Shown: piece after piece, positions 39,734 to 58,198 of the stretch
Numbering within the stretch: position 1 is the first letter of the stretch
Layout of the letters: every line of letters starts with the position of its first letter
From: Alphaproteobacteria bacterium
Lineage (GTDB): Bacteria > Pseudomonadota > Alphaproteobacteria > Rs-D84
Length of the DNA stretch: 64,000 nt
Direction of reading: 5' to 3'
Assembly (NCBI GenBank): GCA_033345195.1
Contig: JAWPOE010000001.1
Location: 8,192-72,191, forward strand
The notes under the pieces: generated by a model
The model's input: the letters and a program-made list of their open reading frames with translations, nothing else
The model's database searches: none
Told to the model about the DNA's origin: nothing
Made by a program: the position numbers and the translations under genes

Positions 39734-40741
39734 CTATAAGTCTTCTGCAAAAATTTCATCCAACAAATCGTTTAAATTGTTACGAAAATCTTCTTTATCT
39801 GACGCCCAAACAACCCGACGCATCAAGAATTTATACACATCATCCATTGTTAAATTAGGAATCCCCGCATTCTTTGCAACACGTTTCCATGCAGTTCTTG
39901 GATCAATTAAATGCACACCACCACGCCCTGGGAAAACCCATTGACCATCTTGTGGTAAATCCTGTAATAAAACAATTGCACGATCTGACAATGGACGCGA
40001 CAACCACATATCATGATTAAAATCTAAATCTTCCCACGCCATTGAAAATATTTTTGATCGCGGTGCAAATCCATAAATCAACATAAAGAACGCCGAACGC
40101 AAGACAATATCTTCTTCTGCCTCTATCGCGCGCACCAACCGCAACAAACCCGAACGATTCAGCGGACGCACACGACGCACCTGCTCTATCTTTTTCATAC
40201 CTGCAATTGGATTTGATTTTACATACCCTGTTTCCAGCGCATAGTTAAATATACTCTGCAACAATTCTTGCATACGTGCGGCAATTGCATTCCCAGAAAT
40301 TTTTTCAATCACCGCCAGAACATCATCGAACGATATTTCCGAAATATTTTTATCAAAAATTTCTGACAAATGTCTATTAATCGCGCGCACCAATTTTACA
40401 TGCGAATCTTCACCACGACGAACCTTGTTTTCAAGATATAAATCCAAGAACTTTTTAAACGTAATTTTCTTACGTCTGACCGGCGGTTTACGCATCGCAT
40501 CTTCCAAGATTTCAGGAACCCTGGTACGCGCAAGTTCAATATCCACATCCGGATAGTTTCCAATTAAAATTCTTTTATCTTTGCCATGCACACGCTTGCG
40601 AACAAAAAAAGTTTTCACACCACGACTGGTCACATACATACGCAAACGCGGTTCCGAAATATCCTGCACGACATCAAAACCACGCGCCGGTGCCGGCAAA
40701 TTGTCCAAGATATACGGATTAAAATAAAATTGATGTGCCAT
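39734..40741 (-). CDS. Tyrosine-recombinase-like protein, probably catalytically inactive
   Basis: The N-terminus looks like an integrase arm-binding domain (DUF4102-like: RLRMYVTSRGVKTFFVRKRV), and box I-like APRSKIFSMAWEDLDF is present. Where HxLR is expected the sequence is TMDDVYKFL, and the protein ends before any GH..Y region. Confidence 0.55.
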   Translation of the reverse strand: MAHQFYFNPYILDNLPAPARGFDVVQDISEPRLRMYVTSRGVKTFFVRKRVHGKDKRILIGNYPDVDIELARTRVPEILEDAMRKPPVRRKKITFKKFLDLYLENKVRRGEDSHVKLVRAINRHLSEIFDKNISEISFDDVLAVIEKISGNAIAARMQELLQSIFNYALETGYVKSNPIAGMKKIEQVRRVRPLNRSGLLRLVRAIEAEEDIVLRSAFFMLIYGFAPRSKIFSMAWEDLDFNHDMWLSRPLSDRAIVLLQDLPQDGQWVFPGRGGVHLIDPRTAWKRVAKNAGIPNLTMDDVYKFLMRRVVWASDKEDFRNNLNDLLDEIFAEDL

Positions 40742-44436: not shown

Positions 44437-44700
44437 ACAACTTTTTTGATAAAAAAAGTTGTCACCCCAACGCTTGACCACGGAACCCAGGTCATGCATT
44501 CCTTTCTTTAAACAAAAACCTGAAAGGTTTTGTCATTCCTGCGTAGGCAGGAATAGGGTCTTTTAACCGCGCATAACATGCGCCAAATTAAAACTTAAAA
44601 AATTGTCACCCCAAAGCTTGACCACGGAACCCAGGTGTATATTCCCCTTCGTCTGGCGAAGGGGTGGCATGCGAATGCGTGACGGGGTAGTGGTTTATTT

Positions 44701-44777
44701 GGTTCGCGTTGCTTGCACTGTATGGCCCCACTCCTGCCGCCGCAGGAGTGACTACGCAGTGCCGCAAAGCGACAAGG
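44701..44777. repeat. 77-nt repeat unit, copy 1
   Basis: Essentially identical to 45063-45139; contains the hairpin actcctgcc-gc-cgcaggagt. Confidence 0.9.
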
Positions 44778-44953
44778 TTTTTAAGTTCCCAGGGGTTAAA
44801 AGTTCCCCTCCTGTGGAGGGGTGGTGCATAGCACCGGGGAGGGTTAAAGTCCCTCACCCTTTTTTTTACACACTTGTCATTGCGAGCCAAGCGACCGCGC
44901 AGGCGTGGCAATCCAGTCTGATGTATTCCTTTCTTTAAACAAAACCCAAGAGG

Positions 44954-45139
44954 TTTTGTCATTCCTGCTTCGGGTCCCGCAAAAATTGAAAAATTTTTGT
45001 GGGTGATACCAGGCAGGAATAGGGTCTATAAAATTTACATTTATCGCTACCCTGTATTTTCTGGTTCGCGTTGCTTGCACTGTATGGCCCCACTCCTGCC
45101 GCCGCAGGAGTGACTACGCAGTGCCGCAAAGCGACAAGG
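44954..45139. repeat. Composite repeat (matches 10594..10756 and 44701..44777)
   Basis: Direct comparison of the sequences. Confidence 0.9.
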
Positions 45140-45213
45140 GGATTTTTTAAGTTCCCAGAAAATAATAATTCCCCTCCATTGGAGGGGTGGTGCAAAGCAC
45201 CGGGGGGGGTAAT

Positions 45214-45238
45214 TAAAAATCCCCCAAACGGGGGGGGG
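45214..45238 (-). terminator. Intrinsic terminator closing the fibre-gene array
   Basis: On the minus strand, ccccc(cccc)-gttt-ggggg followed by attttta, immediately after the stop at 45240. Confidence 0.6.
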
Positions 45239-45239
45239 A

Positions 45240-46577
45240 TTATTCAACCCAAATCGTGGCAGTTCCACTCTTATTAGCACCCGATGGAATAACACCTAAC
45301 ACTGAAACCCCCGGAACAGATGCAGTCGCAGGTATCACATCCAAGGTACCATTATTTACAACCATCGTATCACCAACTGAACGCGCACTCACAACACCAT
45401 TGTCATCAGTTGTCACAACCCCATTAGTAACCACGTCTTGAGTCCATCGAACTTTATCTGCAACACCAGCAACCTCTGATTGCAATGACCTAAGCTGAGA
45501 AGTTGTCGGAACATAGTCTCCATCACTGTTGTTATCAACATCATCATGGACATTAAGCATGTCCACATAAGATTCCGTTGATTTCCTAACCCCACCAATG
45601 GCACCATCAGCCGATTCCAAAAGATTCAACTGAATATCAGTACGTCCAGAAGCCTCTAAACCCGGACCGAGCGTCGCCGGCACAACTTTACCATCTACAT
45701 TCACTGCCATAACTTTTTTTATATTATCCGATCCTTGATTTACATTAACCCTGGTATTCAATGCGGCAATCGTCATATCTGCACGCGGCACCATATTTGC
45801 ATAGTCCCCTAAAGCAGGTCCTGTTGGTATATTAGACATATCCCCACCATAAGTATTTACTTTCAATGCACCATCGTCGTCAAAAACCAACGCACCCGCC
45901 GCAGCCGCTGGGGCTACCTTTACATTCAGCTCAGCATTGATACCATCTTCAGCGGGAACAAGCTCTAAACCCTTATTAACATAGTCTTGACGAACCCACG
46001 GCATAGAACTAGTAGTAGTAAGTTCTTGTATCTGTCCAATCGACGCAACCTCTTTATAACGCTGCTGAATACCACCACCATTTGTAAATGCAGTACCTAA
46101 ACTGTCACCCATATGACTTGTATCCGGCAGCATTGATTGCACCTTACCAACAGACGGATATAACTTATCTTTATTTTCATTTGTAATCGTCGTTGTATCA
46201 GTGGTCTTTAACTTGTTTGCAACGTCTTCCTTATCACTCAATGCGTCTTTGGCTTCGTCTGCACTTTTGGCGGCGGCAATTGCATAGGCACCTGCGGCGG
46301 CGGCATGGTTTTCGGCCTGTTGCGCGGCACCACCGGCAACACCAACCATACGGTTCACATATGTCACCCCAGCAATCCCAGAATCCTTGAATTGCGAAAC
46401 AGCAACCGCAATACCATCTGCTGCAGTTATTGGCCCTAAATTACTTGGATAAATATCAGCACTATGCGACGTCGCGACTGTATCATCCTCAGTTCCGGCT
46501 GGCGTGGTCGCCCATGCAGAACCAACCGCAAACATCGCAATTACAGACACCGATAAAAATAACTTTGCCCTTGACAT
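45240..46577 (-). CDS. Secreted fibre protein paralog G (445 aa)
   Basis: Signal peptide ending GSAWA, an Ala-rich coiled-coil segment, and a C-terminal ..GTATIWVE. Confidence 0.7.
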   Translation of the reverse strand: MSRAKLFLSVSVIAMFAVGSAWATTPAGTEDDTVATSHSADIYPSNLGPITAADGIAVAVSQFKDSGIAGVTYVNRMVGVAGGAAQQAENHAAAAGAYAIAAAKSADEAKDALSDKEDVANKLKTTDTTTITNENKDKLYPSVGKVQSMLPDTSHMGDSLGTAFTNGGGIQQRYKEVASIGQIQELTTTSSMPWVRQDYVNKGLELVPAEDGINAELNVKVAPAAAAGALVFDDDGALKVNTYGGDMSNIPTGPALGDYANMVPRADMTIAALNTRVNVNQGSDNIKKVMAVNVDGKVVPATLGPGLEASGRTDIQLNLLESADGAIGGVRKSTESYVDMLNVHDDVDNNSDGDYVPTTSQLRSLQSEVAGVADKVRWTQDVVTNGVVTTDDNGVVSARSVGDTMVVNNGTLDVIPATASVPGVSVLGVIPSGANKSGTATIWVE

Positions 46578-46732
46578 TTGTTCCCCTTCAATATTTTACT
46601 CTCTCTCGCCCCGAACCCTGGCAAGGCATTACCTAAACCACGTCCCCCCCCTGGTTTAGATAATGCATCTCTATTTCCGCTGGGGCGTGGGGCGACATAC
46701 GCCACCCCACCCCAACAATCATACATTGGTGA

Positions 46733-47656
46733 TTATTCTGCGACCTTTTCCCAAGATATTGCACCACCTTTAGAAACCAATGAACATACAGCATTTGCCA
46801 CATTACAGCCAGCCGCTGTATAAGAATTATCTTTCAAAGCATCCCAATTCATTGCATTATCTGCAGTTGTTTTTACAGCACCCAACTGACTAGCAACAGT
46901 GCTATCCTTTGAAAAACCTGAACCAATTGTTTCTGTAATCGCCGTAGCAGCGTTAGTAATTGCCTCCTGTTCTGCTTGTTCTACTGTGTTTATTGGCGCA
47001 TATGTCGTTGGCAGCGCTGCAACTGTTTGTTTTATACTTGTCAAACCGCTATCAAAATCAGAAATCTTGTCATCAATCTGTTTTCCTGTTTCTTCCTTGG
47101 TATATGCATCTGTGATGCCATAGCCAGCCAATGTTGTCGCATCGTCTGCCTTACCTTCCAATGCAGTCACCAAACCATTAATCTTTGCCTGACTGATAGT
47201 GCCATCTTCAATAAAAGCATCTGTGATTTTTGATTCTGCAATCCTTGTAACAACACCACCCGTTGTCGTCACGCCAGTAACCACTTGACCAGCGGCAGCA
47301 GTTTTTGTAGCTGTCAATTCAGCCAACTCAGTATTCGTCACAACATCTGCTGTTTTCGCATAGTCTTTACCGTCTGACAAATCCGAAACTTTGGCAGCTT
47401 CAATCGCGCCACTAATCTGCTCACCTACATTCGTTGTACCAACCTTGTCTGCAACACCTTTAATCACGGCATCCAAACTTTCCGTAGCAGCTTTCAAATT
47501 CTCAGCACCATTAATATAATTCTTTCCGGTATAAGTAATAGCACCATTTGCGTCTGCACCAGTCTGTTTATCAACATAACCTGTTGATGCGATATCTGCG
47601 TTTGCGGCGGACACTGCCATAATTGCTAAAACTGAAACTGTTAATAATTTTTTCAT
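46733..47656 (-). CDS. Secreted coiled-coil fibre protein paralog F (307 aa)
   Basis: Signal peptide ending SAANA followed by DIASTGYVDKQ. Contains the tail-fibre-like TLAGYGITDAYTKEET and the C-terminal C..C..GGAISWEKV. Confidence 0.7.
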   Translation of the reverse strand: MKKLLTVSVLAIMAVSAANADIASTGYVDKQTGADANGAITYTGKNYINGAENLKAATESLDAVIKGVADKVGTTNVGEQISGAIEAAKVSDLSDGKDYAKTADVVTNTELAELTATKTAAAGQVVTGVTTTGGVVTRIAESKITDAFIEDGTISQAKINGLVTALEGKADDATTLAGYGITDAYTKEETGKQIDDKISDFDSGLTSIKQTVAALPTTYAPINTVEQAEQEAITNAATAITETIGSGFSKDSTVASQLGAVKTTADNAMNWDALKDNSYTAAGCNVANAVCSLVSKGGAISWEKVAE

Positions 47657-47733
47657 CTCTCTTTCCTTTCTTTCTTGGTTTTTATTTTACATTGTGGAAT
47701 GGGCCACCCCACCCCACAATACATTATTTGGTA

Positions 47734-48825
47734 TTAATTGCCCGCTGTTGGTTTAATACCTGTTACTGTACGTTCATCCGTCGCCAACTCTTCGCCTGTT
47801 GCGCGTTCGATAACCTCCCATACATAGCCATCTGTACCATATGTCAATGCACAGTATTTATCCATTGCAGAACATTCTGCTGGAACCTTTGAAATCGCCT
47901 TTAATGCCAATTCTGTAATTTGTCTTTCTGTTTCTGTCTTTGCTGCATCAACTGCATCCGATTCCGCTTGATCTGCATAATTTTGCGCCTGTTTCAAGAT
48001 ACCAGTTTGCTCATTATTAATCGCATCAATCGCGGTTTTATTTGACTTTGACAATGTATCAGCCGCTTTTGCAGTGTCCGCAACATCCGACACTTCGGTC
48101 AGAACGTCATTAGTAATCGTATTACCAACATAGTCAACGATGGCCTTACCAGTCACTGGTAAAGTTTCATTAGCACTTGCAATATCACCAAATACAACAC
48201 CCATCGTTCCATCCGCTGCAACACTAACGCTGGTTCCAGACTTTACGACACCAGTCTTGTCCGCTGTTGCAACATCATCAAACTGAACCGCAGAATCTGC
48301 CAAGGCACCCTGGGCCGCCGTTGCATACGCAGCATTAGAACGTTCTATTTCACCTGCAATTGCCGCTGCAATTTGCTTCTTAACAGATCCGTCTGTATTC
48401 GCATCGCCATCCAATCTATTAACAGTATTTTGCAAAGTTGATACAGAACTATCCGTCGCGATACCGGTCAATCCCAATGTGCTGGTTGCTGCATCCCATG
48501 TCAGCACACCACCTGTAACTGTCAGATTATTTTGTTTCTTTGACAATTCTGTTGTCATCGAATCTTTTGTTGCGAATGTCGCATCTGCCGCTTCCAATGC
48601 TGCAACTTTTGCATCATAGTCAGTCTGAGCAACCTTGAGATCAATTTTACCTTCTAATTCTTCTTTTGCGCCTGCCAATGCACTAGCGGCCGCATTTTTT
48701 GCAGCATTTGCTTCGGCAGCAGCCTTGGCATCAACATAACCCTTTGACGCAACAGCGGCATCTGCACTGTTTGCGGATACGATTCCCAACAAAACTGTTA
48801 AGATTCCTGCGGTTAATTTTTTCAT
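47734..48825 (-). CDS. Secreted coiled-coil fibre protein paralog E (363 aa)
   Basis: Signal peptide followed by AVASKGYVD. C-terminal PAECSAMDKYCALTYGTDGYVWEVI. Confidence 0.7.
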   Translation of the reverse strand: MKKLTAGILTVLLGIVSANSADAAVASKGYVDAKAAAEANAAKNAAASALAGAKEELEGKIDLKVAQTDYDAKVAALEAADATFATKDSMTTELSKKQNNLTVTGGVLTWDAATSTLGLTGIATDSSVSTLQNTVNRLDGDANTDGSVKKQIAAAIAGEIERSNAAYATAAQGALADSAVQFDDVATADKTGVVKSGTSVSVAADGTMGVVFGDIASANETLPVTGKAIVDYVGNTITNDVLTEVSDVADTAKAADTLSKSNKTAIDAINNEQTGILKQAQNYADQAESDAVDAAKTETERQITELALKAISKVPAECSAMDKYCALTYGTDGYVWEVIERATGEELATDERTVTGIKPTAGN

Positions 48826-48886
48826 TTTGCTTTCCTTTCTTTCGTTTATTTATTTGTTTTTTGTTATCTTTTTCTTGGCTTGTTTT

Positions 48887-48895
48887 ATTATACCA
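48887..48895 (-). promoter_or_regulatory. Extended -10 element TGGTATAAT upstream of paralog E
   Basis: Read on the minus strand, about 60 nt upstream of the ATG at 48825. Confidence 0.35.
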
Positions 48896-48905
48896 AAAAT
48901 CATGC

Positions 48906-48940
48906 ATTCGGGTAAAGTGAATAATTCACAAAACCCGAAT
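48906..48940 (-). terminator. Hairpin downstream of paralog D
   Basis: Outer stem attcgggt/acccgaat with inner stem gtgaa/ttcac. The T-run is stronger on the plus side. Confidence 0.4.
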
Positions 48941-48951
48941 TTTTTTATTAA

Positions 48952-50004
48952 TTATTGATTTTCTGTAATTGGTGTCCAGCTGTATACAAATCCACCTTCG
49001 GCTTCTGCACTTGGTGTCACAGCCAACACACACATTGTGCCACTTTCATTTGTACATTCGGCTGGGACATTTGCCGTTGCCAATTTACCCAATGCAACCT
49101 GTTGTACTTCTGTGATTTTACCATCAACCATTGTCACACCAGACAATACACTGCCTGCCGCGGCTGTTCCATTGCTGTCCAATGTTGCGATTTGTTGTGT
49201 TGTAAAGTCTTTCGCATTTTGTTCTGCGGTATTAATTGCCGTCTGTTCTGCTTCTTCTACTGTGTTTTTTAGCGCATATTTTGTTGGCAGTTCTGCGATT
49301 GTTGCCTTGGCATCCGTCAAGTCTGTACTCAGACCAGAAATCGAATTAGAAATCTGAGTTTGTGTTTCTTCCTTGGTAAATGCATTTGTGATGCCATAGC
49401 CAGCCAATGTTGTTGCCTTGTCTGCCTTGGTTTCGATATCTTGTGCGTTCTTTGCGATATCTTGTGCGTTCTTTACAATATCTTCTGCGTTCTTTGCAAT
49501 ATTGCTTGTATTTGTTGCAACTGCACCTTCGGCCAATTCTTTTACTTCTGCATCAGTATAATTGTTGGCTTCAGCCAATGCCGCTGCGATATCATATGCA
49601 ACAGAACCTTCCTTAGACGCATCGCCTTCCAAGGTATCCAAACGTGTGACGATTCCTGTAATATTACCGCCAGACGCTTCATCCAACGCTTCAATCTTAC
49701 CTAAATTAGATGCAATATCTTCTGTCTGTTTTTTATCAATCAAGGCTTGCGCTTGTAAATGCGCTTCATACGTTTCTGTTGTAACCCTGGCATCAATTGC
49801 GCTTTGCATTGTTGCGGCATCTTGCTTGGTCTGGTATGTGTTGGCAACGGTGTTAGACAAATCTGTTACGGATTGTGATGTTGCCAATGGCGCAACCTTG
49901 TTATCAACATAGCCTGTTGATGCAACGCTGATTGCAGCATTTGCACTGGTGGCACCCAAAATCGCCGCCATAAAACCAGTAAACATAATATTTTTTACTT
50001 TCAT
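48952..50004 (-). CDS. Secreted coiled-coil fibre protein paralog D (350 aa)
   Basis: Signal peptide MKVKNIMFTGFMAAILGATSANA, identical to paralog C. Contains ASTGYVDNKV, TLAGYGITNAFTKEET and C-terminal PAECTNESGTMCVL..GGFVYSWTPI. Confidence 0.7.
   Translation of the reverse strand: MKVKNIMFTGFMAAILGATSANAAISVASTGYVDNKVAPLATSQSVTDLSNTVANTYQTKQDAATMQSAIDARVTTETYEAHLQAQALIDKKQTEDIASNLGKIEALDEASGGNITGIVTRLDTLEGDASKEGSVAYDIAAALAEANNYTDAEVKELAEGAVATNTSNIAKNAEDIVKNAQDIAKNAQDIETKADKATTLAGYGITNAFTKEETQTQISNSISGLSTDLTDAKATIAELPTKYALKNTVEEAEQTAINTAEQNAKDFTTQQIATLDSNGTAAAGSVLSGVTMVDGKITEVQQVALGKLATANVPAECTNESGTMCVLAVTPSAEAEGGFVYSWTPITENQ
49432..49515 (-). repeat. 21-nt (7-aa) in-frame tandem repeats x4 (NAxDIxK)
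   Basis: The unit gatatcttgtgcgttctttgc repeats, encoding NIAKNAEDIVKNAQDIAKNAQDIETK. Confidence 0.8.
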
Positions 50005-50075
50005 TTTGCTTTCCTTTCTTTTCGTTTTTTATTTTATGTCATGTTCCATGGCGGAAATTTGACATTGGTTAATCT
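49940..50075. repeat. 136-bp near-identical 5' cassette (signal peptide, RBS and upstream region), copy D
   Basis: Matches 51153-51288 with only a few mismatches, while the gene bodies are diverged. Confidence 0.9.
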
Positions 50076-50116
50076 TGCCCCGGGGGCGCTTTTGCCCCCA
50101 CGGACTATTTTTTATA

Positions 50117-51217
50117 TTATTCCAGAACAATTTGAATTTGTGTGTACTCTGGATTACCTTGTTCATCAAATGTGACGATATAGTCGCCCTTGTTATTGCT
50201 CTGCAAAAGTGCATTTGCCTCTATCGTATCAACATCAGATTGTAATGTATCGATTTCACCTTCGGCTGTTTGCAAACGTGTGTTAATGCCGTTAACGGTT
50301 TCTTTTGTTGCGGCGGCATTTGCCACAGTTTCTACAGCAGTCAATGCTTCTGTTGTTGCATATTTTGAATGGTCAATCGCTTCTAAAGTATCCAAACGCC
50401 CATCCAAAGAGGTTTCCAAATCTGTCACAGAAGACTTTGTCGCCAAATTTGCTGTGGCGGCTCCAACCTTGGTATCAATTGTACCACCATCTTCGGTGAT
50501 ATCTGTGATACTTGCTTTGATTGCATTATCAATTACGTCTTGGTCACCAGATGTTCTGTATGCATCTAATGCAGTTTTGTCTGCCTTGTCTGCGACGGTT
50601 GCTGCCAAGTCTGTCACAGACGCCTTTGTTGCCAAATCTTTGGTGGCATTTGTAACTGCTGCGCTAACATCTGCTGCTGTCTGGGCGGCATTTGCCTTGG
50701 CAATTGTATCATTTGTTGCCAATGTTTGATTCAATGTATTAATATCTGTCTGGGCATCTTCACCGGCCTTTAATGCGGCTGCGATTGCGTTTGCGGTTGC
50801 ACCACCCTCTTTTAACGACGTTTCATTCGCTGCGACACGTTCCGTTAATTCTGCCAAATTTTCATTTGTTGCAATACCTGCTGTTTTTTCCTGAACATAG
50901 CCAACGATATCTGTTGCCGTTGCCCCTTGCGGAATTGTACCAACCTTTGTTTCCAACGCATCAACTTCGCCTTGAACGCCAGATACAGCACTGTTTACAT
51001 CTGTTGTTTTTGCATATTCAGACAAATTAACACCGATTCTGCCGTTTGTAATTGTGACATTGTCGCCTGCGTTAGCGTCTTGTGTCAATTTTGCCTGCAA
51101 TTTATTATCTGCATACTGTTTTGAAATCAATTGATGGGCTGCATCAACCGCGTTTGCACTGGTGGCGCCCAAAATTGCCGCCATGAAACCAGTAAACATA
51201 ATATTTTTTACTTTCAT
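50117..51217 (-). CDS. Secreted coiled-coil fibre protein paralog C (366 aa)
   Basis: Same signal peptide as D. C-terminal ..NNKGDYIVTFDEQGNPEYTQIQIVLE. Confidence 0.7.
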   Translation of the reverse strand: MKVKNIMFTGFMAAILGATSANAVDAAHQLISKQYADNKLQAKLTQDANAGDNVTITNGRIGVNLSEYAKTTDVNSAVSGVQGEVDALETKVGTIPQGATATDIVGYVQEKTAGIATNENLAELTERVAANETSLKEGGATANAIAAALKAGEDAQTDINTLNQTLATNDTIAKANAAQTAADVSAAVTNATKDLATKASVTDLAATVADKADKTALDAYRTSGDQDVIDNAIKASITDITEDGGTIDTKVGAATANLATKSSVTDLETSLDGRLDTLEAIDHSKYATTEALTAVETVANAAATKETVNGINTRLQTAEGEIDTLQSDVDTIEANALLQSNNKGDYIVTFDEQGNPEYTQIQIVLE

Positions 51218-51288
51218 TTTGCTTTCCTTTCTTTTCGTTTTTTATTTTATGTCATGTTCCATGGCGGAAATTTGACATTGGTTAATCT
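51153..51288. repeat. 136-bp near-identical 5' cassette, copy C
   Basis: See 49940..50075. It abuts the stop codon of paralog B (51290). Confidence 0.9.
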
Positions 51289-51289
51289 G

Positions 51290-52318
51290 TTATGGTTGTG
51301 ACAAGATTTCAACCGCTTCCCAGCTGACGTTTTCACCCTGAACATTTGCCAACCACATACCATTGCCATCCGGTGCAGGGATATAGCCCGCAGTCTTTAT
51401 TGTGGCAATATCCTGAGTATTTGTTGCGATATTCTGGGTATTAGTTGCGATATTCTGGGCGTTTGCAGAAATTGAACCGCGAACCTCTGTATCATCATAG
51501 TTTTCTAAGTCCGCGACCGTGGTTTCCAGTGTCTGTACACGACCTTCATACTCTTTCGCTGCATAAACATTGGACAATTTACCAATTTCTGTATCGGTAT
51601 AACCCTTTGCCTCTGTCAACGCATCACTGATACGGGTTGCAACGCTACCTTCACCAACCTGGGTTTTCAAGTCATCTACTTCCCCTTCTAATTCTGTAAA
51701 TGTCGCATCTGTTGCAATACCCTTTGTATTCAGAACACCATCTACCAATTCCAAATTCGTACCCAAGGTAAATGCATCTTGTTTCCCTCTCAGAAAACCA
51801 TCTGTTTCGCCTTTGGTGTAAACATCACTTGCATTTGCCTTACTTGCAACTGCTGCGACTGCATTACCTGCTGCTGTCTTTGCTTCATCTGCTGTTGTTT
51901 TTGCGGTATTTGCAGTTTCTGTTGCAGTTTGCGCTGCTGCGGCTGCACCTTCTGCTGTTGCTTTTGCGGTACTTGCAGTGGCTGTTGCAGTTTGTGCTGC
52001 TGCGGCTGCACCTTCTGCTGCTGCTACTGCCTCTGCTGCGTCTGATTTTGCATCTGCTGCGTCTGATGCCGCGCCTGCCAATGCAGTCGATACAGAAACA
52101 TCCACACCATCAATATTGACAGTGGCATTTTCCATATCAGCACTAACAACGTTACCTGTAATATCGATACCAGTACCCGCAGTCAACGTATCTTGTTTAT
52201 TTGCTATGGCCTTGGTTACGTAATCTGGCGATACAATCTGAACCGCCGCATTCGCCGCACCAACGCCCGACAGAATTGCAGCTGCAAATCCTGAAAACGC
52301 TATATTTTTTACTTTCAT
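51290..52318 (-). CDS. Secreted coiled-coil fibre protein paralog B (342 aa) with foldon-like C-terminus
   Basis: The start was set at MKVKNIAFSGFAAAILSGVGAANA. Contains the TAA-stalk-like SANAQNIATNTQNIATNTQDIAT and the C-terminal GYIPAPDGNGMWLANVQGENVSWEAV. Confidence 0.7.
   Translation of the reverse strand: MKVKNIAFSGFAAAILSGVGAANAAVQIVSPDYVTKAIANKQDTLTAGTGIDITGNVVSADMENATVNIDGVDVSVSTALAGAASDAADAKSDAAEAVAAAEGAAAAAQTATATASTAKATAEGAAAAAQTATETANTAKTTADEAKTAAGNAVAAVASKANASDVYTKGETDGFLRGKQDAFTLGTNLELVDGVLNTKGIATDATFTELEGEVDDLKTQVGEGSVATRISDALTEAKGYTDTEIGKLSNVYAAKEYEGRVQTLETTVADLENYDDTEVRGSISANAQNIATNTQNIATNTQDIATIKTAGYIPAPDGNGMWLANVQGENVSWEAVEILSQP
51405..51467 (-). repeat. 21-nt in-frame tandem repeats x3 (NxQNIAT)
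   Basis: tgcgatattctgggtattagt and two variants. Confidence 0.8.
51893..52018 (-). repeat. 63-nt in-frame tandem duplication (AEGAAAAAQTAT.TA.TAK.T x2)
   Basis: Two 63-nt units read directly in the sequence. Confidence 0.85.
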
Positions 52319-52384
52319 TTTTTTCCTTCCTTTTTTTGTTTTGGTGCGGTATAAACGCAACCGTTTTTGTTAAAATTCGTTACC

Positions 52385-53983
52385 TTATTCTGTCACCTGG
52401 GACGGATCATCAACAACCATCACCGTCACCCATTCACCCGTGCCATCGCCATTAGATACCAACATCGCCATTTCACCATCCGTCATGTTGCCCGTATTTA
52501 ATTTCGCCACCGTCACGGATTTATCTGCCAACTTTGCTGTCGTTACAGATCCATCTGGAATCGTATAACTATTCAACGCCGTTTCGACAACGTTAGAAAC
52601 CTGGGTATGTGTCGCATATGTTGCCATATCAGGTGTATCAGACAAATCATCATACGAACCCGTAAATGCAACATCCGCCAAACCTGTTGGGATTTTTAAT
52701 TCAACCTGATCAACACGCGCATTCGTTGCATAATCCGCCACATCCAATGAATTCGCAATCTGGGTCGCAACAGACTCATCACCAACCAAGCCCTGCAACG
52801 CAATAATATCTGTTGCATTTTCATTCGCCATATTACTTGCAGAATCCGCCGTTGTTTTTACCGCCGCAATATCAGACGCATTTTGCGCAACCGACGCAGA
52901 CAAACCAGACAAATCAACACCACCCGTGACCGCCGCAATCTTTTGTTCCAATTCTGCCTTTAATGCCGCCATTTCAGTTTCTGAAACCGTATCCGCAATT
53001 GCATCGTTTAACGCCGCCTCTAAATTTCCCAGCGCCGTCTTTGTCGCATAATCATTTGCCGTCGACTGCAACACAGCCACATCTGCCTGCAAATCAGTTA
53101 TCTGACCTGCGGTCACAATATCAGACGCCAAAACATCCGCCAACTGTGTTTGCAAGTCTTCTAAATCAGACCGCTTCGCATAATCACCAATCGCCTGCTT
53201 GGTTTCAATCAAGGCCTTTAACTCTGCCTTGGCCGCTTCCAAATTCGCCGTTGACACAAAACCCGTTACATCCGGAATATCTGCCGCCGTAATAAAACCA
53301 GTATCATTTTCCAACTCTGACAATTTTGTTGGAATATTTGCAACAACATCATCAATCGCAGACTGCAACGCATCAATTGCAGACTTTGCCGCAAAATCAT
53401 TTGCCAAATCATATTCTGCGGACACACCATCTTGAACAACTGTCAATTTCCCATCCGCATAATCAACCGTTGTATGCACACCTGAAATTGCAGACAAATC
53501 AGCCGCTAACTCTTCAACCTTTAATTCAACACCCTTAAACTGCTCTGGAATCGTCGGACCATTTGGCGTATAGTCCGTAAATTGTTCCAAAACCTCAATC
53601 CTGGTCTGCAAATCACCAGTATCACCAGAACCACTGCCCGGCTTATTATTACCACCAGATTGCGTTATAGATGAACTGCCCAACGCACTTGACCCCGCCA
53701 AATACTTACCAATAGATAAACGAGGCGTTGTCGCAGAACGGGTCGACGAAACACGCGTCCCCGCCGTTTTACCTGTTGAATTCACACGCATCGCACCACC
53801 ACGTACAGCGTTAATCGCACTGCTGCCTGCCGACGATTTTGCAGACGCAGCACTGGACGTGCCATTATACGTCCCAACACCGCCCAACGAGCGCACAGAC
53901 GCCGCACCAAACGCAGGCGCAGCCATAGCCGTACACAACACACAAGCAATGGAAAGCGTTGAAATTTTCAGTTCTTTTTTCAT
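52385..53983 (-). CDS. Secreted fibre protein paralog A (532 aa)
   Basis: Signal peptide ending APAFG. Contains the phage tail-fibre-like motifs LSELENDTGFITAADIP and LADVAFTGSYDDLSDTP, and the C-terminal GEMAMLVSNGDGTGEWVTV. Confidence 0.7.
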   Translation of the reverse strand: MKKELKISTLSIACVLCTAMAAPAFGAASVRSLGGVGTYNGTSSAASAKSSAGSSAINAVRGGAMRVNSTGKTAGTRVSSTRSATTPRLSIGKYLAGSSALGSSSITQSGGNNKPGSGSGDTGDLQTRIEVLEQFTDYTPNGPTIPEQFKGVELKVEELAADLSAISGVHTTVDYADGKLTVVQDGVSAEYDLANDFAAKSAIDALQSAIDDVVANIPTKLSELENDTGFITAADIPDVTGFVSTANLEAAKAELKALIETKQAIGDYAKRSDLEDLQTQLADVLASDIVTAGQITDLQADVAVLQSTANDYATKTALGNLEAALNDAIADTVSETEMAALKAELEQKIAAVTGGVDLSGLSASVAQNASDIAAVKTTADSASNMANENATDIIALQGLVGDESVATQIANSLDVADYATNARVDQVELKIPTGLADVAFTGSYDDLSDTPDMATYATHTQVSNVVETALNSYTIPDGSVTTAKLADKSVTVAKLNTGNMTDGEMAMLVSNGDGTGEWVTVMVVDDPSQVTE

Positions 53984-54064
53984 GTTTTCTCTCTACTGAT
54001 ACTAAGTTTATCACAATCCGCGAATCGGGGTCAATACCTTTTTCTGACTTTTCCTAAAAAAAAA

Positions 54065-54778
54065 TTAAAATTCGTATCTTAATCCGATTGAAATTGAATT
54101 ATCCCAAATCATACCAATGTCGTTTGAAATATCATACGTATTGCCATCTAAATGCTCAAACGCACGTTCATGCTTTGGCCCCCACAGCATCGCCAAACGA
54201 TAACGCAAATCCAACAACAAATTATAATCCAGATGATACGACCAACCACCCATCAACCCGAACATTGGCGAAATATTGCGTTCAGTATTATCACCACCGG
54301 AAAAGAACACTCCTTGTAAACGCGTCTTTGGCATCGCAATACCAAGCCCCGCACCAACATAAAACCCATTTGCAAAATCATAATACCCATTCGCCATTAA
54401 ATAAGGTATTGTTAACTTGAATGTTGTACCGCGTTCCTCCTCTTCAAATTCAGAAATAATGCCTGCTTCGACTTCGGCACGCCAAAAATCTTCAAACGTA
54501 TGCCCAACAAAAATATTTCCGCCAAACAACAATTCTGTAAAAGATTCATCAGGCAACAAACCTGCATCCGGTGCATTCGTGGAATAATCGTTTTCCCAAC
54601 TTAATAAATTCAAATCCAGGCGACCACCCATATACCACCAGCCTGCCTCTGCCCGATCGGTATAATCATATGCAACCTTATAACTGCCGTCCTTGTTCTG
54701 TTGCAAATTACTTGGCGCCGCATCCGCCACCGTTGCAACCAATGTGGCCAAGACCGCAAAAGATACCATTTTTTTCAT
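54065..54778 (-). CDS. Outer-membrane beta-barrel protein heading the fibre array
   Basis: Strong RBS TAGGAGGG, a signal peptide ending VADA, and C-terminal ..SIGLRYEF. Confidence 0.7.
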   Translation of the reverse strand: MKKMVSFAVLATLVATVADAAPSNLQQNKDGSYKVAYDYTDRAEAGWWYMGGRLDLNLLSWENDYSTNAPDAGLLPDESFTELLFGGNIFVGHTFEDFWRAEVEAGIISEFEEEERGTTFKLTIPYLMANGYYDFANGFYVGAGLGIAMPKTRLQGVFFSGGDNTERNISPMFGLMGGWSYHLDYNLLLDLRYRLAMLWGPKHERAFEHLDGNTYDISNDIGMIWDNSISIGLRYEF

Positions 54779-54804
54779 GATAAAACCCTCCTAACTTTTC
54801 CTAT

Positions 54805-54813
54805 ACTATATCA
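54805..54813 (-). promoter_or_regulatory. Extended -10 element TGATATAGT upstream of the OMP gene
   Basis: Read on the minus strand, about 27 nt upstream of the ATG at 54778. Confidence 0.4.
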
Positions 54814-54911
54814 CAAAAAAGCCCATTTCCAAAATACAAAAAAAACAAAGATTGACTTTTTTTTGATTTTTTTGCCATCTTGGATGCACACAAAAAGAAA
54901 GGATTCACATC

Positions 54912-55231
54912 ATGAAAAAACTTTCTTTATTTTTATGGTATTAACTGATGACGCACGCGACGAATTAGAATCCCAGGCACTGTATGTAAAGAAAAACCCA
55001 GACGCAAATATCATTATCGAAGGTCGCTGTGACGAACGCGGTTCAACAGACTATAATTTGGCATTGGGCGCACTGCGCGCCGGGAACGCCGCACATATAA
55101 TAATCCAAGACGGTATTAAATCAGAACGTATCAAGACCGTATCTTATGGCAAAGAAAACCTAATTTATTCAGAAACAGGCGAAAAAGTTTGGGCAAAAAA
55201 TTGCAATGCAACAACACGCATCAGCAAATAA
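54912..55231 (+). pseudogene. pal: pal-like OmpA-domain remnant (frameshifted or truncated, no lipobox)
   Basis: ATG at 54912 with an AAAGGA RBS gives MKKLSLFLWY then a stop. The OmpA/Pal domain (IIIEGRCDERGSTDYNLALGALRAG..VSYGKE) is in the +1 frame from 54935. There is no Cys lipobox in any frame, and the first strand of the domain is missing. Confidence 0.55.
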
Positions 55232-55237
55232 AAAAAG

Positions 55238-55258
55238 TCCCCCAGTTGGGGGATTTTT
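55238..55258 (+). terminator. Intrinsic terminator
   Basis: tccccc-agtt-ggggga followed by ttttt. Confidence 0.6.
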
Positions 55259-55295
55259 ATTTGACGATAAAAAAAATTTTTACTATATTCCATGC

Positions 55296-56087
55296 ATGGA
55301 AGAAAAGACAGCTATATCATTTACAAACGTGTCTGCCAGATATGACGACACGCCCGACATTTTAACCGATGTTTCTTTTAACATCAGCAATGGCGCATTT
55401 TACTTTTTATCTGGTGCATCTGGTGCAGGAAAAACAACCTTGCTTCGCCTGATATACCAATTGCACAAACCGTCAACTGGTCAGATAAAATTATTTGGCC
55501 ACGTAACAAATAATATGACACGTGACGAAATAACCGCACTGCGCCACAAAATGGCAATTGTATTCCAGGAATATTCATTGCTGTCACACTTGTCTGTTTT
55601 TGACAATGTCGCCCTGCCCCTGCGTGTACGCGGCGTACCAGAACATAAAATCAAAAAACTGGTGGCCAAGGTATTGGACTGGGTTGGCCTGGGCAAATAC
55701 GCAGACGCAAATCCAAAATCATTATCTGGCGGACAACAGCAACGCGTATCTGTTGCGCGCGCAATTATTGTTCAGCCAACAATTCTGCTGGCCGACGAAC
55801 CAACAGGAAATCTGGACGACGAAAACGCATCACGCTTAATGGAACTGTTTATTCAGATGAACAAAATGTTTGGCACAACAATTATATTGGCCACACACAG
55901 CAAGAAACTAATGGATACTTACAAGTTTCCTGTAATCCATGTTGAAAATCACCGCGTTGGGTTTACTGGAAAATCTGCCGCCACACCACAACCAGAACCA
56001 GAATCAAAAAAAGTCTGGCGCGGTCCCAAACCACAAAGCTATTTTGCAGAACTATCGAAACAATTTGACGAAATCGGGAACGCATAA
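55296..56087 (+). CDS. ftsE: Cell-division ABC transporter ATP-binding protein FtsE
   Basis: The start was set at MEEKTAISF. Contains Walker A GASGAGKTT, signature LSGGQQQR and Walker B ILLADEP. Confidence 0.9.
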   Translation: MEEKTAISFTNVSARYDDTPDILTDVSFNISNGAFYFLSGASGAGKTTLLRLIYQLHKPSTGQIKLFGHVTNNMTRDEITALRHKMAIVFQEYSLLSHLSVFDNVALPLRVRGVPEHKIKKLVAKVLDWVGLGKYADANPKSLSGGQQQRVSVARAIIVQPTILLADEPTGNLDDENASRLMELFIQMNKMFGTTIILATHSKKLMDTYKFPVIHVENHRVGFTGKSAATPQPEPESKKVWRGPKPQSYFAELSKQFDEIGNA

Positions 56088-56926
56088 TGATTAAAAGACC
56101 TATTGTATTTTCACTGGTTCGTGAACAATCTATATTCATGACCGCAATCATGTCACTGTTGACATTCTTGTCCGTATTGGCACTGGGGGTTGCACTATCA
56201 ATTGGTACCGGGGTCATGCGTTGGAATAATCAGTGGGAATTATTCGCCACGGTTCAGGTTATGGACACGTCCAAAGCAGACATAACACAGAAAATAATAA
56301 AAGACAACACCGATAAAATCGCATCTGTGACGGAAATCACAACCGCCCAAATGCAAGAATTGATGTCCCCATGGATTTCGGGTGGCGGCGTTTTAAAAGA
56401 TTACCTGCCCAAAATGTGGGAATTAAAATTCAAAACAAAGTCGGACATGACATCGGTCGGCGAACAACTATCTAAGAACGCACGCTTTTTAACACATGCC
56501 AGCGCACTTAAAACCGCAACATCCGCAGGTTGGAAAATGATTGTTATGGCCGGATTAATTTTAGCATTAACCCTGGGTGCGATTGCAGTTTGCATTTCAT
56601 ACATCGCCCGCAACACCGCAATGTTGCACAGACGCGAACTGGAAATATTAAATCAAATTGGTGCGTCTGACAACTTTGTCGCGCGCCAAATGCAATCAAT
56701 CGTTGCACGCATATGCCTGACTGCGACAGGCGCCGGTTTTTTGGCCGCCACACCAGTATTATTGTTAATCATATCTTCTGCACACAGTGCGCGTGTCGGC
56801 CTGATGGCAATGATGGGCCTGTCTGGCATGGGTTGGATAATACTGCTATTGATGCCGATTGCGATTTTGGCATTTGCAATTTGGATAACCCGTCGAACCA
56901 CTTTAAAAATATTAAAAGACAGTTAA
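56087..56926 (+). CDS. ftsX: Cell-division permease-like protein FtsX
   Basis: TAATG overlap with ftsE; topology of 4 TM segments. Confidence 0.85.
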   Translation: MIKRPIVFSLVREQSIFMTAIMSLLTFLSVLALGVALSIGTGVMRWNNQWELFATVQVMDTSKADITQKIIKDNTDKIASVTEITTAQMQELMSPWISGGGVLKDYLPKMWELKFKTKSDMTSVGEQLSKNARFLTHASALKTATSAGWKMIVMAGLILALTLGAIAVCISYIARNTAMLHRRELEILNQIGASDNFVARQMQSIVARICLTATGAGFLAATPVLLLIISSAHSARVGLMAMMGLSGMGWIILLLMPIAILAFAIWITRRTTLKILKDS

Positions 56927-56932
56927 TAAATA

Positions 56933-57451
56933 ATGTTGCGACGTATATTAACCCCATCTTTTGTAATATTTGCGCTATTCATACTGGGTGGTATAATATT
57001 TAAATCCAGTGCACCCACACGCTGTGACGCCATTATGCCAAATGACAGTATTTTCGTACTGACCGGTGATGAACGTCGTATACCATTTGCCATGCGCCAA
57101 ATGCGAAAACACCCCAACGCAGACCTGTATATCATCGGTGCCGGTGCCCAAGGAAAAATAGAGGTTGCACGCCCCGCAGTTATAGAGGCAGAATCAAAAT
57201 CCACCTATCAAAACGCCCTGGCAATACGCGACATTGTCGTACGCCGCGACTTAAAACGAATTGTCATCATAACAACCGAAGACCACATTAACCGCGCAAA
57301 ATATTTAATCAAGCACGAATTACCAGAAACAGAAATTGTTACATGTCCCGTAACCTTGGTTGGTATGCCACCTGGAAAAAGACTTGAAAGATGGGTCACA
57401 GAATATGTAAAATACATCGTCACAATGATTGGAATCAAAGAAAGCAAATAA
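56933..57451 (+). CDS. DUF218 (YdcF/ElyC-like) protein
   Basis: N-terminal TM segment, then IFVLTGDERRI.. and ..STYQNA..IITTEDHINRA motifs. Confidence 0.65.
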   Translation: MLRRILTPSFVIFALFILGGIIFKSSAPTRCDAIMPNDSIFVLTGDERRIPFAMRQMRKHPNADLYIIGAGAQGKIEVARPAVIEAESKSTYQNALAIRDIVVRRDLKRIVIITTEDHINRAKYLIKHELPETEIVTCPVTLVGMPPGKRLERWVTEYVKYIVTMIGIKESK

Positions 57452-57465
57452 CAAAGGAAAAAAAT

Positions 57466-58173
57466 ATGTTCAGAACAATTGTTTTCAAAACCGCCTTGGC
57501 AACACACTTTATCTTATGGTCACCAATATTATTAGTTGGCTTAATCAATAAAAAACTGTGTGGCTATTTGGTGTTTAAGTGTGCCGCCGGCGTTCTGGTC
57601 GTTGCCCGCATTTTTGGTGGCATAAAATATCAGGTCAATTATCCCAAAACCGAAGAAAACGGTATTCCCGTTATGCCAAACGGCAACGTACGCCTGGATG
57701 GCAAGGTTATAATCGCCGCCAAACATATGTCTATTTTGGAAATTGCCGTCATTTCAAAGGTCGTAAAAAACACGTTCTTTATTCTGAAACGCGAATTATT
57801 ATGGATTCCGATTTACGGTTGGTCATTTTGGCGCATGGGCATGATTGGCGTTAATCGCGCCAAGGGTCGCACAAACCTGTCAAAACTGTCCAACCAGGTC
57901 GAAGACGAAATTCGCAACGGTCGCATTTTGGTCATATTCCCCGAAGGCACACGCGCAAAACCAGGCCAACACGTGCCATTAAAAGGCGGCCTGTTGTTTC
58001 TGGCACGTCACTTAAAACTGCCTATTTTACCAGTTGGCACAGACGCAGGTTTATATTGGCCAAAGCGCGGTCGCATAACGCCGGGTACCGCAACCGTCAC
58101 ATTCGAACCAATCTTGCCCAGCAAGGCATCACTGGACGAAATTAGCGAGGCAATTAACCGCCACAGCGCATAA
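57466..58173 (+). CDS. plsC: 1-acyl-sn-glycerol-3-phosphate acyltransferase
   Basis: The start was set at MFRTIVF with RBS AAAGGA. Contains KHMSILE (HX4E instead of HX4D) and FPEGTR. Confidence 0.8.
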   Translation: MFRTIVFKTALATHFILWSPILLVGLINKKLCGYLVFKCAAGVLVVARIFGGIKYQVNYPKTEENGIPVMPNGNVRLDGKVIIAAKHMSILEIAVISKVVKNTFFILKRELLWIPIYGWSFWRMGMIGVNRAKGRTNLSKLSNQVEDEIRNGRILVIFPEGTRAKPGQHVPLKGGLLFLARHLKLPILPVGTDAGLYWPKRGRITPGTATVTFEPILPSKASLDEISEAINRHSA

Positions 58174-58198
58174 AAATCCCCCGATTGGGGGATTTTTT
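58172..58198. terminator. Bidirectional intrinsic terminator
   Basis: aaaaa-tccccc-gatt-ggggga-tttttt lies between convergent genes. Confidence 0.65.

Follow-up and report, generated by a model that had tools for sequence, protein, structure and literature searches.

The closest described counterparts of the locus reported here, a hypervariable island of fibre genes in a 64-kb stretch of DNA (the window, by which we mean the whole stretch analysed) from Candidatus Enterousia, are the Legionella protein Lcl and the MAT fibres of Bdellovibrio. Lcl carries a signal sequence, a 30-amino-acid N-terminal helix that re-binds the surface of its own cell, a collagen trimer of strain-dependent length, and a C-terminal domain that is also trimeric (PMC11162425). 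It has no beta-barrel or lipid anchor, leaves the cell by type II secretion, is encoded by a single gene, and bears a glycosaminoglycan-binding DUF1566 head (PMC11162425). The MAT fibres are a cell-encoded multigene family with signal peptides, forming phage-fibre-like mosaic trimers on the surface (PMC10769870). Their conserved N-terminal part, a beta-rich domain of about 130 amino acids (aa), is thought to bind a surface element, their shafts are beta-prisms, and their variable C-terminal tips often hold an S74 chaperone-protease (PMC10769870). With these two precedents, the missing anchor of the Enterousia fibres is less unprecedented than a first-pass annotation of the same DNA had implied.

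Enterousia belongs to the order Rs-D84, whose genomes of about 0.75-1.0 Mb lack most biosynthetic pathways as well as respiration, and whose members have been proposed to be obligate symbionts or parasites of other cells (PMC12306168). The window originates from one of these uncultured gut Alphaproteobacteria, with a genome below 1 Mb. In the list of open reading frames (ORFs), the island consists of eight consecutive members on the minus strand: the gene for a small beta-barrel outer membrane protein (OMP; 54065-54778), followed by seven fibre genes, A to G (45240-53983). The spacers from the OMP gene to G measure 81, 66, 72, 112, 126, 77 and 155 nucleotides (nt). The first-pass annotation had listed seven same-strand genes behind a 237-aa OMP gene, with spacers of 66-155 nt and a terminator at the end, and all eight ORFs and their coordinates were confirmed. 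The feature is real, conserved and previously undescribed, and is most aptly placed, as a new family and a new type of locus, among the trimeric surface fibres of diderm bacteria. In a literature search, published work on Enterousia and Rs-D84, including the genomic survey of the order (PMC12306168), nowhere describes the locus. Our preferred reading, to which we assign a probability of roughly 0.55, is that the island encodes exported homotrimeric fibres and a small beta-barrel OMP, which together would form the variable outer face of Candidatus Enterousia as a fibrillar coat or attachment apparatus.

To define related loci, one genome per GTDB species was scanned with an N-terminal pattern of the family. 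The resulting 56 loci all come from uncultured gut metagenome-assembled genomes (MAGs), labelled Candidatus Enterousia, unclassified Alphaproteobacteria, 'uncultured Rickettsiales' or, once, 'bacterium'; in flanking DNA, the nearest of them match the window at 90-95% identity. Synteny was followed with blastp markers at all 56 loci and with Pfam gene tables at four of them (L001-L004). Throughout the set, the island is bounded on one side by DUF218-FtsX-FtsE-Pal, transcribed away from it, and on the other by DedA, RbfA, an optional acetyltransferase and LepA. Complete islands hold three to seven fibre genes and one incomplete island at least nine, so that the suggested synteny of OMP and array with variable copy number is borne out. 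Three MAGs carry the island on two contigs, with the break inside the fibre array (L021/L051, L008/L055 and L007/L058). The presence of both halves in the same MAG suggests one island per genome, and the tendency of the region to break short-read assemblies means that fibre-gene counts from MAGs are lower bounds. As a separate observation on the flank, two loci have the acetyltransferase between rbfA and lepA replaced by a 121-aa gene resembling the four-helix-bundle proteins of the 23S_rRNA_IVP/bAvd type (L001 17015-17380; L002 16925-17290). Proteins of this type accompany diversity-generating retroelements; no reverse transcriptase was seen near the two genes.

When 294 ORFs of the family were sorted by their ends, distinct subfamilies emerged in a fixed gene order: OMP, A, long K (optional), H (optional), Kb, Kc, E, F and G. 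Instead of the loose repertoire of seven duplicates first envisaged, the island is therefore a fixed-order set of old, distinct subfamilies kept across an order, and deep-branching genomes retain a minimal set of A-like, Kc, E and G-like members. The first position belongs to the A type, with the signal MKxELKISTLSIVCVLC, the N-module VRSLGGxGTY...PRLSIGKYL and the end ..GEMxMLMSNGDGTSxWVxV. Its representative in the window, fibre A (52385..53983, minus strand, as are all the fibre genes), is the first and longest at 532 aa and comprises a signal peptide (MKKELKISTLSIACVLCTAMAAPAFG, with A as the next residue), a basic N-module, a helical rod and a C-terminal hairpin module (..GEMAMLVSNGDGTGEWVTVMV). 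The 77-aa N-module (53675..53905, minus strand) reads VRSLGGxGTY ... VRGGxMRV ... STR..TPRLSIGKYL, and in alignment several of its Arg and Lys residues are invariant, whereas Asp and Glu are absent. A profile of it found 246 cluster representatives (at 50% identity) among 1.84 billion proteins, all of this family, nearly always at residues 27-105 or so, directly behind the signal peptide. The module is a candidate anchor segment. Positions 2 and 3 are optional and are empty in the window: long K has an MKVKNI.F-type signal and no C-terminal end in common that could be recognised, and H has the mature N-terminus ..AYSVTVSKTYVD.

Position 4 is held by the Kb subfamily (signal MKVKNIxFSGF, end ..AGTYLVNFDxxGNxSYAxIxIL), represented here by B and C. 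Fibre B (51290..52318) has 342 aa when begun at the ATG at 52318 (MKVKNIAF), which was used in place of the TTG at 52360 in the ORF list. It has a MKVKNIAFSGF-type signal peptide and the C-terminal sequence GYIPAPDGNGMWLANVQGENVSWEAVEIL; fibre C (50117..51217, 366 aa) is a second Kb-type member. The Kc subfamily in position 5 shares the signal MKVKNIxFSGF and ends in Cys-x(3-10)-Cys-VLS...W.PLT. Here it is fibre D (48952..50004, 350 aa), with the mature N-terminus AISVASTGYVD, a TLAGYGITNAFTKEET module and, at the C-terminus, a Cys-x7-Cys motif with a beta-hairpin (residues 324-346, nt 48967-49035). In position 6, the E type (signal MKKLTAGIF, Cys pair, end ..WEVIER) is represented by fibre E (47734..48825, 363 aa), with an MKKLTAGIL signal peptide, the N-terminus AVASKGYVD and the end ..ECSAMDKYCALTYGTDGYVWEVIE. 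The F type in position 7 (signal MKKILTVSL, Cys pair, end ..WExV) is represented by fibre F (46733..47656, 307 aa), which has the signal peptide MKKLLTVSVLAIM, the N-terminus DIASTGYVD, a TLAGYGITDAYTKEET module and the end ..GCNVANAVCSLVSKGGAISWEKV. Position 8, with the signal MIKTKFVFAVS and the end ..IPSGxxxSGTAxIWVE, is occupied by fibre G (45240..46577, 445 aa), the last gene and an outlier. Its N-terminal region (..SGIAGVTYVNRMV..AGGAAQQAENHAAAAG) and its end (..ASVPGVSVLGVIPSGANKSGTATIWVE) are conserved around a wholly variable middle, and it contains more Val and Gly than the other fibres and no sustained heptad periodicity.

In composition, the seven proteins contain 13-21% Ala and 8-14% Thr. 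None of them has a significant match in Pfam, NCBIfam or PHROG, and searches of PDB sequences with A, B and the C-terminus of B gave nothing below E=0.1. The view that no characterised fibre family is confidently matched thus holds for Pfam, NCBIfam, PDB and the literature. Homologues of A, D and G are nearly all unnamed metagenome proteins, and the named ones are mostly a 'hypothetical protein' from Alphaproteobacteria MAGs of animal guts. At least 357 were found for A (all unnamed or 'hypothetical protein', from Alphaproteobacteria MAGs), at least 152 for D, and only 28 for G, all from metagenomes or MAGs, the sole named one being an Alphaproteobacteria MAG. A look-up of the window's D protein by exact sequence gave no entry in public assemblies. 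A search of the remainder of the window found no additional member of the family.

The seven products had been called paralogues sharing one N-terminal motif and one style of cleavage site, and each of these statements applies to part of the set. B, C, D, E and F are significantly related pairwise in composition-corrected BLAST (D-F 3.9e-21, C-D 1.9e-12), and D and F share 71 aa at 62% identity. A is linked to them through its C-terminal module only, and G by architecture and context alone. D, E and F have a clear xASxGYVD motif, and B and C a degenerate one; in G it is displaced to about residues 68-75 (IAGVTYVN), and A lacks it and has its own 77-aa N-module instead. The cleavage motifs ANA and AWA do not extend to A (AFG/A predicted) or E (ADA/A). 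At the other end, comparison by hhalign showed the C-modules of A and B/C to be homologous (92% probability, E=5e-7), the Cys-pair module to be weakly related to both, and that of G to be unrelated. The fixed order at 56 loci and the presence in each subfamily of its own N- and C-modules around variable middles could mean that a single composite appendage is built from the subfamilies, joined end to end or co-assembled, with A as the base at the OMP and G as the tip, in the manner of T4 gp34 to gp37, the conserved ends being junctions. The basic N-module found in A alone, and the differing, non-helical composition and C-end found in G alone, would suit such an arrangement. Nevertheless, B-F have the same N-motif and related C-modules, which suggests a common docking site over serial joints; moreover, the optional members (long K, H and a second Kb copy) come and go, and the C-module types c and e are exchanged between E and F. 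A composite appendage is accordingly judged improbable, and separate homotrimeric fibres remain the preferred reading.

Export of the products by Sec, as proposed from the window, is supported across the family. Signal peptides were recognised in 285 of the 294 ORFs by a crude test, and D, E and F contain exactly two Cys residues each, both within the conserved C-terminal motif, which recurs in 93 distinct sequences. The confinement of the Cys pair to this motif fits an oxidising compartment and not cytoplasmic phage assembly. In A-G, no Cys follows any predicted cleavage site, no lipobox was found, and the last residue is E, P, N or Q; the absence of Cys after the cleavage site indicates that these are not lipoproteins.

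That the products are trimeric fibres is very probable. The strongest evidence comes from relatives of A: Pfam Collagen was found in seven of 75 long family members scanned (best E=1.9e-26). These are A-type proteins from seven deep-branching genomes, in which 10-44 GXY triplets lie between the usual A-type N- and C-modules, and another A-type protein, P0327, matches both Collagen and Alanine_zipper. A collagen triple helix is an obligate three-chain structure with parallel chains, and the A-type fibres should therefore be trimers. In the window itself, runs of [ILV]xxN[TA]xx heptads occur, three consecutive in B (ISANAQN IATNTQN IATNTQD, residues 283-303, nt 51410-51472) and four in D (residues 162-189, nt 49438-49521). 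Such Asn-at-d heptads were reportedly described by Hartmann et al. in 2009 as a motif of the stalks of trimeric autotransporter adhesins (TAAs), their trimer specificity being known from published TAA structures. In addition, a single-chain AlphaFold2 model of D, with a mean predicted local distance difference test (pLDDT) score of 60, places helices at residues 60-279, then a short helix and a hairpin (E324-331/E339-346), the first 59 residues being strand-free at a pLDDT below 50. The trimeric nature of the fibres thus draws on collagen in A-type orthologues, the Asn-at-d heptads of B and D and the helical-rod model of D, although heptad periodicity is significant only locally. In-register heterotrimers of neighbouring paralogues were also considered and judged unlikely: lengths vary independently between neighbouring genes and between genomes (orthologues range from about 230 to more than 880 aa), which makes homotrimers more likely.

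The variability of the island is best seen against the closest strain, which is a roe-deer colon MAG (L003/L005). Flanking proteins are nearly identical between the two (FtsX 96%, FtsE 99%, DedA 98%, RbfA 98%, LepA 100%), and flanking DNA is 92-95% identical. The fibres are far more divergent, and the best match in the array of the closest strain covers just part of most of them: in aligned parts, identity to this match is 79-84% for A, 29% for B, 33% for D and 43% for F, and C reaches 52% over 17% of its length, E 49% over about half and G 80% over about half. Within the island, DNA can be aligned with that of the closest strain only at the regions for signal peptides and N-termini, at 3' ends and in spacers, indicating that the middles of the fibres are replaced, not merely mutated. 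On the right-hand side, blastn identity rises from 82.6% (52685-54923) to 92.3% (54949-58174) across the boundary. Traces of exchange are also present within the array. D and F have 203 nt in common at 77% identity, and the D block DKKQTEDIASN..GGNITGIVTRL occurs as well in proteins with another type of C-end. The 5' end of C and its upstream spacer (51150-51288) match those of D (49937-50075) over 139 nt at 97% identity, and the start of B shares 51 nt at 76% identity, a pattern that points to gene conversion, not long ago, at the 5' ends of adjacent paralogues. Furthermore, single family members carry other modules, such as a Big_3 immunoglobulin-like domain (E=6e-15) in one and weak Phage_XkdX matches in several, and the variable middle apparently accepts domains that are not coiled coils.

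Two switching mechanisms were considered and rejected. Phase variation through the G8 tract in the F-G spacer is contradicted by the occurrence of a comparable tract in only one of the 56 loci. A shufflon or invertible cassettes would require inverted repeats flanking cassettes, and none were found; all genes are complete and on one strand, and the only inverted pair spanning the island consists of two similar terminator palindromes. Conserved ends would instead allow homologous recombination to replace the exposed middles. It is mainly this pattern of conserved ends around swapped segments, the OMP included, usual for loci of surface antigens and phage receptors, from which we infer that the fibres lie on the cell surface.

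A periplasmic location is the natural alternative, in which the proteins would act as struts or tethers between outer membrane and peptidoglycan, analogous to Lpp/OprI or to Thermotoga Omp-alpha in a lineage without Lpp. The island adjoins pal and lies near tolB, its products are Sec-exported Ala-rich coiled coils, one member matches Pfam Alanine_zipper (OprI-type lipoprotein), and no outer-membrane translocator is evident. This alternative is nonetheless distinctly unlikely. A lipobox and a Cys at the predicted cleavage sites are both lacking, the range of orthologue lengths given above is not expected of a spacer of fixed periplasmic width, and seven or more different struts are hard to explain; in addition, the swapping of middles between strains with 96-100% identical housekeeping proteins is typical of exposed antigens. 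An exposed fibre thus remains preferred over a periplasmic one.

The resemblance of these proteins to phage tail fibres and TAA stalks, which had been pointed out from short motifs, was followed further. All of the quoted motifs were located in the translations: TLAGYGIT(N/D)A(F/Y)TKEET in D and F, DVYTKGETD and NAQNIATNTQNIATNTQDIAT in B, and ELENDTGFIT and LADVAFTGSYDDLSDTP in A. A 32-aa segment of D around TLAGYGIT matched 18 phage records, with the best score for Faecalibacterium phage Roos (E=6e-6, 72% identity across 29 aa). The others include crAss-like phages as well as Pseudomonas phage proteins whose annotation reads tail protein or appendage. Among the more remote matches of D are proteins that contain domains of the phage tail repeat, collar, head-fibre or YadA anchor type. 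Together, these matches indicate that short modules are common to the family and to phage and TAA fibres, while the family as a whole is neither: in tblastn against 50,697 phage genomes, whole D and whole A matched nothing. An origin as a remnant of a prophage, gene transfer agent or tailocin fibre module could appeal to the TLAGYGIT module, to weak PHROG tail-fibre hits (E of about 1e-3) and to an integrase-like gene 4.5 kb away (39734-40741). Such an origin is largely refuted and, in our view, very improbable. In the four related loci for which Pfam gene tables exist, no capsid, terminase, tube or baseplate gene was seen up to 10 kb away, and there, as in the window, flanking ORFs with a Pfam match are all housekeeping genes. 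The same housekeeping flanks recur at all 56 loci, a scan of IMG/VR with the N-terminal pattern found no relative, and signal peptides and disulfide motifs are unfit for assembly in the cytoplasm. The window also has no tRNA gene, and the integrase-like gene occurs at the same place in L001-L004. The prophage reading is therefore rejected, and the earlier description of the array as cell-encoded and outside any phage context stands. The integrase-like gene itself is on the minus strand, adjoins lepA and matches Arm-DNA-bind_3 and Phage_int_M, with no catalytic-domain hit listed; its conserved place marks it as a resident gene and not a marker of a mobile element.

The OMP gene at the head of the island (54065..54778, minus strand) encodes 237 aa, with a signal peptide ending ..VADA before AP and the C-terminus ..GLRYEF. 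The protein matches Pfam OMP_b-brl (PF13505; E=8e-9, 36.4 bits vs a gathering cut-off of 28.7) and, weakly, NCBIfam Rick_Adr (E=1.7e-3). With its score for PF13505, a signal peptide and a C-terminal aromatic residue, it shows all the features by which the clan was judged; among PDB sequences, no close relative was found and nothing scored below E=0.1. Wherever a related locus extends to this flank, the OMP gene immediately precedes the first fibre gene. Conserved segments alternate with variable ones along the protein, and it is 66% identical to its counterpart in the closest strain, compared with 96-100% for the flanking proteins. That the OMP has a role in the fibre system is suggested only by this constant head position and by its co-variation with the island. 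Two further small ORFs of the window, at 34668-35417 and 35905-36495 (both minus strand), likewise have signal peptides and a C-terminal Phe (..VVFGVDF and ..IGFLYNF). They resemble beta-barrel OMPs, yet have no Pfam match at E<=1e-5, and the genome may hold several small OMPs besides the one heading the island.

Between the OMP gene and the divergent pal gene (plus strand) lies an AT-rich control region (54779..54960), the right-hand edge of the hypervariable island. Most spacers within the island have a AAAGGAAAG-type ribosome-binding site, and several have a hairpin right behind the stop codon. Promoter-like sites are present in several spacers, for example TTTACC-18 nt-(TG)TATAAT in the D-E spacer, and hence the OMP and the fibres do not necessarily form one operon. 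The island ends with a terminator-like, G+C-rich hairpin with a T-run directly 3' of the G stop codon (45218..45241, minus strand), and a second hairpin lies at 45187-45171. A similar palindromic hairpin, CCCCCAGTTGGGGG, was observed at 55238-55253 between pal and ftsE and resembles the terminator behind G at the other end of the island. In this neighbourhood, the listed ftsE ORF (293 aa) probably starts about 30 codons too early, its orthologues having 259-266 aa (site 55206-55296), and the listed pal ORF (TTG at 54701) is overlong, its orthologues having about 132-136 aa. Directly downstream of G, at 44453-45210, a G+C-rich, hairpin-rich element of about 365 nt is present in two tandem copies (44695-44777 vs 45057-45139, 98% identical), and 10594-10756 aligns at about 70% identity to the matching site downstream of the island of the closest strain (L003 14779-14967, the element there being noted at L003 14700-14988). 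The element has no match in Rfam and may be a repeat like repetitive extragenic palindromes or miniature inverted-repeat transposable elements, or an RNA of a new type.

The fibres could be exported and then released, as extracellular matrix, as aggregation or biofilm proteins or as vesicle cargo, with the OMP an unrelated antigen. The signal peptides come without a recognisable anchor, the promoter-like sites and hairpins in several spacers require no single operon with the OMP, and Legionella Lcl is likewise found in supernatants and outer-membrane vesicles (PMC11162425). On the other hand, conservation in these otherwise fast-changing proteins is highest at the mature N-termini, which points to a fixed docking partner, and the OMP adjoins the array wherever the flank is included. 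Release of the fibres is thus regarded as unlikely, and their retention on the cell surface is preferred.

In the preferred reading, Sec would export each chain, and the signal peptide would be cleaved, as predicted from sequence. The small conserved C-terminal beta-hairpin module would then set three identical chains in register, secured by a disulfide clamp in the D, E and F types. From there, the chains would zip up as a rod whose trimer-forming modules are interchangeable: coiled coil rich in Ala and Thr with Asn at position d, collagen in some orthologues, and the short modules shared with phages. The conserved mature N-terminus, which is the basic 77-aa module in A and the xASxGYVD segment in B-F, would keep the fibre on the cell surface, either peripherally on the outer membrane, as with Legionella Lcl, or by docking on the co-encoded OMP. 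Homologous recombination at the conserved ends would swap the exposed middles, yielding strain-specific fibres under pressure from the host, partner cells or phages. We thus infer for every member a homotrimeric state, cleavage, surface location, N-terminal anchoring and a role in adhesion or protection. The function would most likely be attachment to partner or host cells, or that of a protective variable coat, either of which suits a bacterium that draws most metabolites from others.

A bolder version of this scheme holds that the small OMP anchors the fibres through their conserved N-termini or helps to export them. Sec-delivered, hairpin-capped trimeric fibres and barrel would then constitute a 'split' analogue of type V secretion, with the A-module threaded into or bound to the barrel or lipopolysaccharide, the fibres possibly stacked in gene order, and the whole serving as an organ for attaching to partner cells. 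We consider this version doubtful. If true, it would mean that a bacterium with few biosynthetic pathways and a genome below 1 Mb has a self-contained surface-appendage system of a new type.

Several points count against a variable outer face built of homotrimeric fibres and the OMP. Expression and location are predicted from sequence, and the OMP could be just a neighbouring variable antigen. No route of translocation across the outer membrane is evident at the level of the locus, whole genomes not having been scanned, and the genomic survey of Rs-D84 mentions neither type IV pili nor a secretion system (PMC12306168). The conserved C-terminus would stand at the distal tip, which is unusual for an adhesin, whose tip should vary. 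On the structural side, Pfam Collagen is not found in the seven proteins of the window, the collagen evidence being direct for A-type orthologues only, and the hydrophobic periodicity of about 3.5 residues is present with significance in a minority of sequence windows. The AlphaFold2 models are of single chains and low in confidence, that of D as given above and that of G, at a pLDDT of 46, unusable and too poor for a fold search. Searches of the PDB with the D model in Foldseek gave no match at E<=0.001, and the PDB sequence searches were likewise empty.

The importance of the island lies in its combination of constancy and change. It takes up about 1% of the host genome and occupies the same site in all 56 related loci, and it is where near-identical strains differ most; a conserved site with maximal strain difference makes it a prime candidate for the interface with hosts, partner cells, phages and the immune system. 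Enterousia and Rs-D84 occur widely in the guts of humans and livestock and presumably live off other cells, and the island supplies concrete proteins for studies of such contact. In addition, its conserved ends and swapped middles offer a clear natural case of modular fibre engineering.

Elsewhere in the window, two features stand apart from the island. A gene of the class II fructose-bisphosphate aldolase family is present at 62046-62993 (plus strand; PF01116, E=3e-94), whereas Rs-D84 genomes are said to be without fructose-bisphosphate aldolase in the published survey (PMC12306168). Its product may be a tagatose- or other ketose-bisphosphate aldolase, or the gene may have been overlooked by the survey. 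At 78-14330, seven successive ORFs (768, 232, 1214, 186, 287, 514 and 943 aa) are without a Pfam match at E<=1e-5, a row that is unusual for a genome below 1 Mb. Four or five of the seven have signal-peptide-like starts, the 287-aa ORF is rich in Cys, and the N-terminus of the 943-aa ORF, rich in Arg, Ala, Gly and Ser, loosely resembles the A-type N-module. This may be a second block of envelope or secreted proteins without assigned function. A search of the whole window with Rfam gave no match.

Compared with known systems, the Enterousia family lacks the defining features of MAT fibres, TAAs and Lpp, and it departs from fibritin and other phage fibres in carrying signal peptides and in not being encoded by phage genomes. 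TAAs (type Vc; YadA, UspA, BadA) are alike in being variable surface fibres of mosaic make-up with a trimeric coiled-coil stalk of Asn-at-d heptads. They differ at the C-terminus, which in Enterousia is a short, soluble-looking hairpin of about 25-35 aa instead of the YadA-like 12-stranded anchor; the absence of a YadA-type C-terminal anchor, noted in the first-pass annotation, was confirmed by a Pfam scan that found no PF03895 in A-G at E<=1, nor in 75 relatives at E<=1e-3. T4 fibritin (wac) similarly combines a segmented, parallel coiled-coil rod with a small C-terminal beta-hairpin cap that has a Gly turn and a conserved Trp. The GYIPAPDGNG..W of B resembles the sequence of the T4 foldon, without homology being established. 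In a PDB search, fibritin (1ox3) matched the last 42 aa of B at E=1.2, and no Pfam Fibritin_C hit was found in A-G. Against hidden Markov models of the C-module of the family, the score of the T4 foldon was matched by 55 (class a) or 20 (class e) of 2000 shuffles and was not significant for three classes, a relation that is at best marginal. The Enterousia proteins further differ from fibritin in their signal peptides, disulfide motifs and lack of phage context, and from Braun lipoprotein and OprI tethers in having neither a lipobox Cys nor a C-terminal Lys.

The OMP has its own relatives. As in other OMPs of the OMP_b-brl clan (Omp25/Omp31, Opa, Rickettsia Adr), it is small, ends in Phe and varies strongly between strains, and its steady pairing with a fibre array has no known counterpart. 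For the fibres, Lcl is the closest precedent in architecture, and A-type orthologues likewise have collagen stalks; PF01391, which marks collagen-like surface proteins (Lcl, Scl, BclA), is found in those orthologues and in P0327 and not in the fibres of the window. The Enterousia fibres are unlike Lcl in forming an ordered array of three to at least nine genes, in their hairpin end and mostly coiled-coil stalk, and in showing no sequence similarity to it (no PDB hit). The MAT fibres, absent from the PDB and compared by description, differ in that their N-domains have as counterparts motifs of 10-15 aa (B-F) or a low-complexity basic module of 77 aa (A). In Enterousia, moreover, helices or collagen make up the shaft, variation falls in the middle while the C-end is conserved, the genes are clustered at one OMP-led locus, and Peptidase_S74 was not found by Pfam in A-G or in the 75 relatives scanned. 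The MAT fibres, borne by a bacterium that exploits other cells, are nevertheless the closest in biological role. Alongside Lcl and MAT, this large unannotated family enlarges a still small group of barrel-less, Sec-dependent trimeric surface fibres in diderm bacteria.

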